Position numbers and translations under genes: made by a program
Notes under the pieces: generated by a model
Told to the model about the DNA's origin: nothing
The model's input: only the letters and a program-made list of their open reading frames with translations
Databases searched by the model: none
NCBI GenBank assembly: GCA_964367775.1
Contig: CAYIYX010000003.1
Location: 1 to 25,152 of the forward strand
Origin: an uncultured Candidatus Saccharibacteria bacterium
GTDB taxonomy: Bacteria; Patescibacteriota; Saccharimonadia; Saccharimonadales; Saccharimonadaceae
Reading direction: 5' to 3'
Length of the DNA stretch: 25,152 bases
In this document: one piece after another, positions 9,765-11,528 of the stretch
Layout: every line of letters starts with the position of its first letter
Numbering within the stretch: position 1 is the first letter of the stretch

Positions 9765-11528
9765 ATGTCAAACTATACCAAATTACCCATGTCACCAGAG
9801 GTTCGTGCGTACGCTGAAATGCAGCGCATGCAGGAGTTTGATGTGGTAAACCAAGAAGCAAAAAGCCGGTGGTGGCATAAGCTTGGCGCGCAGACCTGTA
9901 ACTCCGTTCAGTATAGCCCAGAATCGCAAAGCAATGTCTCGAGGGAAATAATTTCGGCTGATGAAATAGTCGACAGGACGACCGTGGAGCAGCTTGCGCG
10001 GCAACTTATAGACAACTATGAGCCGAGTCCGAAAAGACTGCGTGAACAGGAAGCAGAAGACAACGCTAGGACGGCGCTTTTTGAGGCGTTGACGGCCAGC
10101 GGGCACATGTCGGTTGTTACGCTCGAGGGTGATCCGGTAGAAGTTCATGAACAGGTTTTGCAGCGTTTGCTGAACGCGTACTTTCGTTCTGGAATTCCGC
10201 CTCACGAAAAAGCACGTAACTTTGAAGAGATATGTGAAGAGTTGGTAGTCCAGGCTACCTTTGAGCGCATGCAACAAGGGGATGTCCCGTCCGATACAAA
10301 AATCAACACGTTGTCAGATTATGCACATCCTCTCGGGTCAGAGGCTCAAAAATTAGGCTATCGACCCAGTGACGGCAACGATCAACTAGGGAAAGGCATG
10401 ATTCGTGAAACCTCTTTTGAACAGCTGGGTGGTGTGTGGACGAGAGTTATAAAACAAATTAGTCGTAGTAATACCTTTGCCCCAACCACGATTGCAAAAC
10501 TGCAACATGCCGGGCTGCAGTTACCGAAGCGCCATGGTGAAGCTGATGTGCAACTGCTCGGGTCGCAGATGCTCAGCGTAAGCCACGGTGCGCTTGAGGT
10601 AATGCGGTTGCTTGACCATTTGCAACGTGGTTTTAAGGTTATGTACGGTGAGCCGGTGACAAAAGATACTATACCCTATGAGAAGCTAGAAGAAGTATCG
10701 CAGTTACGAGAGGCAGAAGTCGAGTTTCACGTAAAAGATTTGGCAGATTATGAAAGAGAACTCGACGATCTCTATAAAAAAGGGAGTATTACCGAGGCCG
10801 AACATACTAAGCGATACGTCGAGGCGCTGCGCGAACACGTGCGGGCGATTTGCGTGCGCATACCGACGTATACCAAGGGAGCATTAGGCCAGAAGGTGGT
10901 TGACGATTACTACCGTGCTCATACATTGTACGAGGCGGGAGACTCAGTTGGGGCTCAGAGCGTCGTGAGTGGCGCAAGTGGCCGCGAATCTGCCGTCTCA
11001 GCGTGTGGTATGTCTACGACGGTGGAAAATAATAATCCAAACAGTCCAGAATCATCGCAGAAACAATCGGTACAGTCGATTCTTGAGCGTTCGCTTGAAG
11101 GTGATTGGACGAAACGCGTGGACCATTGTCCCATTTGTGGCTCAAAGGACATAATGGCACAAAAGCGAGGCGACAAAATACACGGTCTCGAGTGTGGTTG
11201 TTGGTCGGACGTATGTACCGGGAAGTACTACCAAGGCCCGGGAAGAATAACGTTCGGCGGCCAGGAAACTCAAGAAAATATAAAACAGAGTCGGGGTGGG
11301 CGCGAAACACTTTCAAATAACAGAGCATTGCACGAGAACGCAAAAAGGCTGTTCGGCGAAAGGGCGATCATAGACAGCCGCGTGACGGTTGGCGACCAAA
11401 CAATCAATATTATAGATAGTGTGACGGGCGATGTGTTGCTAGATAATGTCGACTTAGCAGTATTGTCATATATGTCAGCCTACACGGCTAAGAGCGTCGC
11501 ACATGATGATTTTGTGCTTGCGGCGTAG
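9765..11528 (+). CDS. Hypothetical protein (587 aa) with a C-terminal Cys-rich putative metal-binding ribbon
   Basis: The track's GTG 9630 start lies inside the riboswitch; the first ATG after the platform is 9765 (MSNYTKLP). Motif C-x2-C-x18-C-x-C-x4-C at 11127-11216. No TM or signal peptide seen. Confidence 0.8.
   Translation: MSNYTKLPMSPEVRAYAEMQRMQEFDVVNQEAKSRWWHKLGAQTCNSVQYSPESQSNVSREIISADEIVDRTTVEQLARQLIDNYEPSPKRLREQEAEDNARTALFEALTASGHMSVVTLEGDPVEVHEQVLQRLLNAYFRSGIPPHEKARNFEEICEELVVQATFERMQQGDVPSDTKINTLSDYAHPLGSEAQKLGYRPSDGNDQLGKGMIRETSFEQLGGVWTRVIKQISRSNTFAPTTIAKLQHAGLQLPKRHGEADVQLLGSQMLSVSHGALEVMRLLDHLQRGFKVMYGEPVTKDTIPYEKLEEVSQLREAEVEFHVKDLADYERELDDLYKKGSITEAEHTKRYVEALREHVRAICVRIPTYTKGALGQKVVDDYYRAHTLYEAGDSVGAQSVVSGASGRESAVSACGMSTTVENNNPNSPESSQKQSVQSILERSLEGDWTKRVDHCPICGSKDIMAQKRGDKIHGLECGCWSDVCTGKYYQGPGRITFGGQETQENIKQSRGGRETLSNNRALHENAKRLFGERAIIDSRVTVGDQTINIIDSVTGDVLLDNVDLAVLSYMSAYTAKSVAHDDFVLAA

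Follow-up and report, generated by a model that had tools for sequence, protein, structure and literature searches.

Genes controlled by cobalamin (B12) riboswitches fall into two familiar groups: uptake and salvage operons (btuB, btuFCD-btuR, and the ECF-CbrT type) and genes for B12-independent isozymes (metE, nrdAB/nrdEF, and nrdDG), OFF-riboswitch control of soluble cytoplasmic proteins being classic for the latter. Here, we analyze a gene that recalls both groups in its regulation and neither in its product. It lies on a stretch of 25,152 nucleotides (the window) that forms positions 1 to 25,152 of contig CAYIYX010000003.1 (assembly GCA_964367775.1) from an uncultured Candidatus Saccharibacteria bacterium. 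Like the uptake and salvage operons, this target gene sits behind a predicted OFF riboswitch in a B12 auxotroph, and related loci co-transcribe a predicted cobalamin binder (DUF4430), a small predicted importer (DUF6580), and, once, the adenosyltransferase CobA/BtuR. Unlike in those operons, the main cargo is a soluble protein of 450 to 590 amino acids (aa) with no likeness to a transporter, binder, adenosyltransferase, or CblC-like enzyme, and most loci hold this gene alone. The regulatory logic of the gene is identical to that of the B12-independent isozymes, and the ribonucleotide reductase (RNR) NrdJ is the one clear B12 enzyme that its genome encodes; however, the protein is neither homologous to MetE or to an RNR of any class nor similar to them in fold, and it lacks a partner that would generate a radical. 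A further parallel, by analogy only, is with the Cys-ligating corrinoid handlers BtuM and CblC/MMACHC, in which, during BtuM decyanation and CblC/MMACHC processing, a Cys reportedly acts as cobalt ligand or nucleophile. The single invariant Cys of the target family could play either part, but the target matches neither protein in sequence or structure, BtuM being an S-component in the membrane and CblC adopting a nitroreductase-like fold.

Saccharibacteria and other ultra-small symbionts do not synthesize B12, yet many environmental lineages depend on NrdJ for all of their DNA precursors. A gene under direct B12 control in these genomes, with no known relative or fold, is the most direct handle on how they manage the cofactor, and its product is a purifiable target with an invariant Cys, a small conserved cluster of acidic and basic residues, and a predicted zinc ribbon. 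Our literature search found no paper tying Saccharibacteria or Patescibacteria to cobalamin riboswitches or NrdJ. New here are a three-branch protein superfamily, the riboswitch slot that it occupies, its tie to NrdJ, its invariant residues, and a suggested recombination origin for the tandem riboswitches of the window. We also identified a candidate minimal B12 uptake system, DUF4430-DUF6580, and cargo that appears exchangeable within the riboswitch slot.

The target gene and its homologs lie behind a cobalamin riboswitch

An earlier reading of the window made without database searches (the sequence-only reading) had placed the target open reading frame (ORF) directly under a cobalamin riboswitch. 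The sole match in the window above an Rfam gathering score (RF01689, 39.4 bits at 8422-8524 against a gathering score of 36.5) precedes the DUF4430 and DUF6580 genes instead (riboswitch 1; Table 1), but the claim is nonetheless correct by virtue of a second element, riboswitch 2, directly 5' of the target ORF. Its aptamer (9591-9699) scores 28.2 bits on RF00174, for which the cut-off is 31.5 (local E value, 1.6e-5); invisible at the Rfam gathering level, it is therefore not obvious from standard annotation. On R1, a covariance model made from 24 related riboswitches of this lineage, riboswitch 2 reaches 78 bits (riboswitch 1 reaches 84 bits), and it retains all 25 columns that are invariant among those 24. 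The orthologous riboswitches in L001, L002, and L003 pass RF01689 (L-numbers denote fetched loci and G-numbers the genomes compared), while remoter ones fall below Rfam yet can be aligned, with an invariant CUGUGCCGCAAC core and UCCCGAGCAGGA hairpin. In a model-fitted alignment of 74 distinct sequences, paired cells make up 97.2%, and changes on both sides of a pair number 182 versus 50 in shuffles (0/500), also far above every slid control.

This linkage extends to the relatives of the target. The protein has 42 word-indexed homologs and 92 representative clusters, none of them named, and such few named records as there are come from Saccharibacteria. We designate the three branches of the superfamily FAM1, to which the target belongs, FAM2, and FAM3. 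Among the approximately 40 homolog loci fetched for the FAM1 upstream survey, R1 detects a single riboswitch on the same strand, just 5' of the gene, in all 36 that have intact upstream DNA; of the other four, two have riboswitches cut by contig ends and two lack upstream DNA. In FAM2-type and other loci, the riboswitch is directly upstream in 26 of 27, and at the 27th, it stands ahead of a DUF4430-DUF6580-FAM array. Five genomes (G125, G083, G113, G248, and G053) have exactly one R1 riboswitch each, always 5' of this gene, and in the target's own genome, RF00174 gives two riboswitches only, both within the window. The notion that an unrelated gene came to lie by chance behind a riboswitch left by a lost gene could draw on the fact that the Rfam-threshold riboswitch belongs to DUF4430/DUF6580 and the one before the target ORF is sub-threshold. 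Yet, because a riboswitch precedes every homolog examined (about 80 loci in three divergent branches) and the covariation is strong, chance placement is refuted, and we give it practically no credence. The sequence-only reading had proposed counting riboswitches upstream of homologs and had allowed for a dispersed family devoid of riboswitch or B12 context; the opposite was found, with all loci that have upstream DNA being positive.

The predicted OFF switch

Riboswitch 2 resembles the class-II cobalamin riboswitches (RF01689, the adenosylcobalamin [AdoCbl]-variant or env8 type) in its compact aptamer, CUGUGCCGCAAC core, short P6, and use of a downstream P13 hairpin in the switch. It differs in that a near-invariant UCCCGAGCAGGA hairpin is followed by a terminator with the Shine-Dalgarno (SD) sequence as its 3' arm and a U-run abutting the AUG, and also in that many copies of this lineage, riboswitch 2 included, score under the Rfam gathering thresholds. 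The layout is general: at about 30 homolog loci, a hairpin with a GAGGG-like 3' arm (the SD sequence) lies some 30 to 60 nt past P13, followed by the U-run and at once by the start codon. Since this order of hairpin, U-run, and ATG is kept in the orthologs L001, L003, L008, and L030, the evidence supports the ATG at 9765 as the start codon rather than a GTG at 9630, from which a longer frame would traverse riboswitch 2.

In a fold of the platform by itself, CCCGAG from the P13 segment base-pairs with the terminator stem's 5' arm, CUCGGG, thereby forming an alternative antiterminator. This pairing and a ligand-stabilized P13 together define what would be a standard OFF switch. With cobalamin bound, the aptamer would hold the UCCCGAGCAGGA hairpin, allowing the terminator/SD-masking hairpin to form at the start codon; under cobalamin scarcity, CCCGAG would pair instead with the terminator 5' arm, and the target gene would be expressed. 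Thus, the architecture of the platform as read from the sequence predicts a B12-repressed gene.

A hyper-divergent superfamily in a single syntenic slot

A genome of the same genus, G125, gives no FAM1 match, but at the same position (TerC, riboswitch, ORF) it encodes a 448-aa protein that became the founder of FAM2 (L053; G125:C3, 5606-7177, minus strand), a branch with 60 homologs. The TerC and Nramp flanks of G125 and the window are 69 to 74% identical in DNA, and the presence of FAM2 at the FAM1 position points to one of two causes, replacement of the allele or very rapid evolution. Comparison of the two branches with hhalign gives a probability of 96.7% and an E value of 4.6e-10 over 333 columns, a homology seen at the profile level only. 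An R1 search of 150 genomes of the class supplied a further 19 riboswitch-downstream regions, most of them from genomes without a FAM1 or FAM2 profile match. The 15 regions from the same order have a slot ORF of 472 to 547 aa, usually followed by NadD, and this ORF is missing in the 4 regions from other orders. Eight slot ORFs undetected by the FAM1 and FAM2 hidden Markov models (HMMs) constitute FAM3, which hhalign relates to FAM1 with a probability of 99.1% and an E value of 5.4e-19. On these profile alignments and the shared synteny, one hyper-divergent superfamily, restricted to one Saccharibacteria order, occupies one syntenic slot across it, and within that order, it is the standard, often the sole, gene behind the compact cobalamin riboswitch.

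NadD is the commonest gene 3' of the FAM gene, often with a 4-bp overlap. It was rejected as a functional partner: being the only full NadD in the four genomes checked, it is best seen as a housekeeping gene kept there by synteny. Separately, the family gene is split or has in-frame stops (TAG, TAA) in three genomes (G248:C8:151132-152451, G220:C4:47728-49070, and G194:C1:83648-84925), which suggests decay in some lineages.

A soluble protein with invariant residues and no known fold

The target ORF proved to be real, and its 587-aa product is soluble-looking, as had been proposed: no transmembrane segment or signal peptide was found in it, and its maximum 19-residue hydropathy is 1.23 versus 2.2 to 2.5 in the two adjacent membrane proteins. 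Its Cys residues lie at positions 45, 157, 363, 414, 455, 458, 477, 479, and 484. The SACGM motif spans residues 412 to 416 and an S/N/Q-rich linker residues 417 to 447, and these are followed by the cluster C455-x2-C458-x18-C477-x-C479-x4-C484; every position named in the sequence-only reading matches residue by residue. That reading had also described a large helical N-terminal region, which holds for a helical bundle at residues 305 to 407, whereas residues 60 to 300 are alpha/beta in the AlphaFold model. The overall layout is an alpha/beta domain, the helical bundle, Cys414, the linker, the zinc-ribbon-like Cys cluster, and a small C-terminal domain.

In a merged alignment of 58 FAM1, FAM2, and FAM3 sequences, Cys414 is 100% conserved; Glu107, Arg151, Glu155, Asp284, Gly295, and Cys455 are conserved in at least 97%, Ser184 and Gly392 in 93%. 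Within the Cys cluster, C455 is conserved in 98% and C477 in 90%, and the arrangement has the two CxxC-like knuckles about 15 to 20 residues apart that characterize zinc ribbons; sub-threshold matches to Zn_Ribbon_TF and Lar occur in 7 and 6 FAM2 members, respectively. We infer that this cluster is a structural zinc ribbon, the zinc itself being deduced from the spacing and conservation of these residues.

Structure prediction and fold search, follow-ups proposed in the sequence-only reading, returned no informative match. The full AlphaFold model has a mean predicted local distance difference test (pLDDT) score of 77.8, with about 90 in the core, and a model of the domain at residues 60 to 302 has a pLDDT of 87.7 and a predicted template modeling (pTM) score of 0.86. 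The best Z score in the PDB fold search (Foldseek, VIA-wide) was 5.1 for the full model and 3.7 for the domain model, which amounts to no fold match. Taken together, the PDB, AFDB cluster, and Atlas fold searches gave only uncharacterized relatives (nothing else in AFDB) or weak PAS-like, PepSY, and FlaG-like noise, an ESM Atlas feature search with the target gave no usable match, and sequence and profile searches of the family against Pfam, NCBIfam, and PDB gave nothing real, only Prion, UbiK, and SHOCT noise. Going by these models, the target protein is without any known fold.

A motif scan of the target protein found no DxHxxG, P-loop, or RVxG[FWY] motif, and together with the Pfam and NCBIfam searches, it bears out the earlier statement that B12-binding, glycyl-radical, and MetE signatures are lacking. 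Membership in the B12-binding domain family (PF02310) has neither the motif nor a Pfam match to speak for it. For RNR classes I to III and the glycyl-radical proteins (PF02867, PF13597), there is no Pfam or NCBIfam match and no barrel in the models, and Gly415 of the SACGM motif is not kept in FAM2. The family HMM likewise does not place the protein among the adenosyltransferases (CobA, PF02572; PduO, PF01923): a PF01923 match with an E value of 0.013 in one member only was set aside as chance, and PduO-type enzymes occur in just 1 of 121 genomes of the class. A DUF4365 fold match is weak (probability of 0.87, TM of 0.40, E value of 0.03), and a PD-(D/E)xK nuclease was rejected, as Lys210 and Asp185 are not kept in FAM3 and no PDB nuclease reaches a Z score of 4. 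The PAS-like fold appears in low-probability matches only (Foldseek probability of ≤0.15, VIA Z score of ≤3.7).

These features bear on the possibility that B12 scarcity, perhaps equivalent to the lack of a B12-supplying host, induces a nonenzymatic regulator or effector. Such a zinc-ribbon protein could halt replication or growth or could act on the host, its divergence then reflecting co-evolution with a variable partner. The pairing of a zinc ribbon with a helical bundle, a common regulator architecture, would fit, as would the small number of polar residues conserved across the superfamily, the internal stops in three genomes, and the fact that branches within one genus can be linked by profile only even though their flanks are 69 to 74% identical. 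Set against this, the protein matches no DNA-binding or sigma/anti-sigma domain and has no signal peptide or secretion neighbor, the invariant Cys with the conserved Glu, Arg, Glu, and Asp looks rather like a working site, and the operon partners indicate B12 handling. We consider such a regulator or effector improbable.

Dependence on NrdJ and the proposed role of the protein under B12 scarcity

The target's own assembly (959 kb, 94% complete) encodes NrdJ as its single RNR (NF005122, 1373 bits), adjoining NrdR; no NrdD or PduO-type enzyme was found in this genome. CobA/BtuR is present, as it is in the five other carriers checked, and the idea that the protein stands in for a missing adenosyltransferase was thus dropped (CobA in 6 of 6 carriers). 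Of the 10 genomes in the target's taxonomic family that match NrdJ strongly, 7 carry FAM1 or FAM2, and neither branch occurs in any of the approximately 75 genomes without NrdJ; as these genomes are related, the association is a pattern rather than a statistic. Co-occurrence with NrdJ, a comparison that the sequence-only reading had called for, thus came out with the family seen only in genomes having NrdJ. Besides NrdJ, G176 encodes a further RNR alpha-like protein whose score on TIGR02504, 381 bits, is sub-threshold; the gene for it lies about 1.4 kb 5' of the riboswitch and FAM2 gene.

That reading had left the role of the protein between cobalamin acquisition and a B12-independent substitute function, a bracket supported by the universal riboswitch, co-transcription with DUF4430-DUF6580 or CobA in some loci, and the restriction to genomes with NrdJ. 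The protein probably helps these cells to cope when B12 is scarce. Because these genomes lack B12 synthesis and have the AdoCbl-dependent NrdJ as their only RNR, a helper for scavenged cobalamin suggests itself, and our tentative prediction, to which we would give somewhat less than an even chance, is a cytoplasmic protein that is induced by B12 starvation and handles cobalamin. Between an importer (DUF4430/DUF6580 or another) and CobA/NrdJ, it would capture the cofactor, unload it, or process it chemically, with a working site formed by Cys414 and the Glu107/Arg151/Glu155/Asp284 cluster and with the Cys cluster as a structural zinc ribbon. Cobalamin handling is favored because every informative operon partner is a gene for uptake or adenosylation and because the family gene vanishes along with NrdJ.

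The chief competing explanation is that the protein secures the deoxyribonucleotide supply while NrdJ is idle, either by providing or by sparing these precursors in another, B12-independent way; candidates include DNA or deoxynucleoside salvage, an enzyme acting on nucleic acids, and new reductive chemistry using Cys414. The protein would then fill the place that riboswitch-controlled nrdAB, nrdDG, or metE takes in other bacteria. This would account for a family restricted to genomes with NrdJ, the sole RNR of the own genome, and an OFF riboswitch over a soluble cytoplasmic protein matches the B12-independent isozymes. Zinc-ribbon modules are frequent in nucleic-acid enzymes, in keeping with the weak matches to TFIIB/Lar/DpnI-type ribbons and the DUF4365 model, and the FAM2 locus of G176 adjoins the second RNR-like gene. 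However, there is no RNR-class similarity, glycyl-radical motif, activase neighbor, or P-loop, the model has no ten-stranded barrel, and the PD-(D/E)xK motif fails, with Lys210 not kept in FAM3. Moreover, the known operon partners are genes for B12 uptake and adenosylation rather than nucleotide genes, and lineages that lost NrdJ lost this gene too rather than retaining it. On balance, a bypass of NrdJ is unlikely, if still the strongest competitor; its boldest form, in which the protein keeps DNA synthesis supplied without B12 as a new functional RNR substitute with an unprecedented fold and an invariant Cys, is a long shot. The weight that the named readings leave over falls to functions beyond those considered here.

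Several observations also weigh against a cobalamin-handling protein. The Pfam, NCBIfam, PDB, and fold searches detected no cobalamin-binding motif or fold in the target. NrdJ-bearing genomes of other orders show no FAM1 or FAM2 profile match, and the protein is thus not generally needed for B12 use. Uptake or CobA genes share a transcription unit with FAM at only four independent loci, versus dozens where FAM stands alone, and the commonest downstream gene, NadD, is a housekeeping gene with no B12 link. A B12-independent bypass of NrdJ would predict the identical riboswitch logic and phyletic pattern, and the extreme divergence, even inside one genus, is unusual for a cofactor-handling enzyme.

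Tandem riboswitches, the uptake cassette, and other contents of the slot

The features of the window around the target gene, the arrangements seen in the slot, and the G176 region are collected in Table 1.

Table 1. Features around the target gene, slot arrangements in related loci, and the G176 region
Feature	Location	Strand	Remarks
TerC/DUF475 gene	7228-8274	-	Divergent from the riboswitch unit
Sigma-70-like promoter candidate for the whole unit	8368-8396	+	TTTTCA-17-TATAAT, 10/12 consensus; pattern match only; just 5' of riboswitch 1
Cobalamin riboswitch 1 (aptamer and P13 hairpin)	8408-8562	+	Controls DUF4430-DUF6580 (predicted)
Intrinsic terminator of riboswitch 1	8577-8610	+	10-bp stem, then TTTTTGTTTT
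DUF4430 protein, 133 aa	8640-9041	+	PF14478, E 1.1e-13; hydrophobic segment from residue 7
DUF6580 membrane protein, ~184 aa	9038-9592	+	PF20221, E 1.1e-49; ATGA overlap with DUF4430 gene
Cobalamin riboswitch 2 (aptamer and P13 hairpin UCCCGAGCAGGA)	9589-9722	+	Directly 5' of target ORF
Terminator/SD-sequestering hairpin and U-rich tail	9737-9764	+	10-bp stem at 9737-9760; tail abuts ATG at 9765
Target gene, FAM1 branch	9765-11528	+	587-aa soluble protein
Nramp-family metal transporter	11573-12913	+	PF01566, E 1.7e-72; 45 nt 3' of target gene
Slot: tandem arrangement	Window		Two riboswitches; DUF4430-DUF6580, then FAM1
Slot: DUF4430-DUF6580 without FAM	G180, G338, G252		NadD next in G180
Slot: DUF4430, DUF6580, FAM	G022, metagenome locus L044		Under one riboswitch
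Slot: FAM, then CobA	L014		CobA 51 nt downstream
RNR-like gene, riboswitch, and FAM2 region of G176	G176:C1:122710-127327		Partly covered by L058

Upstream of the target gene, riboswitch 1 and its two genes constitute a good candidate for a minimal B12 uptake system. The DUF4430 protein is likely a membrane-anchored, outward-facing cobalamin binder; we take this domain to be the beta domain of vertebrate B12 binders. A paper on the evolution of those binders (PMC4350170) reportedly mentions DUF4430 once. The DUF6580 protein, a likely cobalamin importer by prediction, belongs to a family that few genomes have (10 of 144 in the order) and that is found behind a cobalamin riboswitch in G180, G338, G252, G288, and G022. 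As a pair, DUF4430 and DUF6580 lie behind such a riboswitch in five or more genomes besides that of the window; our literature search found no paper on DUF6580.

The two riboswitches of the window appear to be reciprocal chimeras. Riboswitch 1 combines an aptamer of the FAM1 type (86 to 96% identity to those before FAM1 orthologs) with a platform resembling the DUF4430 type, and riboswitch 2 combines a short-P6 aptamer, as in DUF4430 cassettes, with a platform of the FAM1 type (84 to 85% identity). This pattern is suggestive of an integration of the uptake cassette by a single crossover inside the riboswitch core, an origin that is only suggestive because the compared segments are short. More generally, the arrangements in Table 1 are suggestive of an exchange of slot cargo by recombination within the riboswitch itself.

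On the 3' side, the Nramp gene may share a transcript with the target gene, in the window's clade only. It scores far under the MntH equivalog cut-offs (101 versus 430 bits) and lies 3' of FAM1 only in that clade (L001, L003, and L008), being on the opposite strand in G125; because of this restriction, it was rejected as a functional partner.

Loci from two other orders have the same riboswitch type before genes for a DUF4430 protein and a prenyltransferase-like alpha/alpha-toroid protein (L109, 106-2814; L112, 172-2934), the third gene being DUF6580 in L112 and a P-loop kinase-like ORF in L109. The DUF4430 and alpha/alpha-toroid proteins resemble the two domains of transcobalamin/intrinsic factor, here in separate genes, and together with DUF6580 they recall a binder of that type plus an importer. 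Finally, in L110 (132-2710; G008:C7), this riboswitch type is followed by a 789-aa ORF without a Pfam match and then by a glycosyltransferase gene; the 789-aa protein may be a further B12-regulated cargo.

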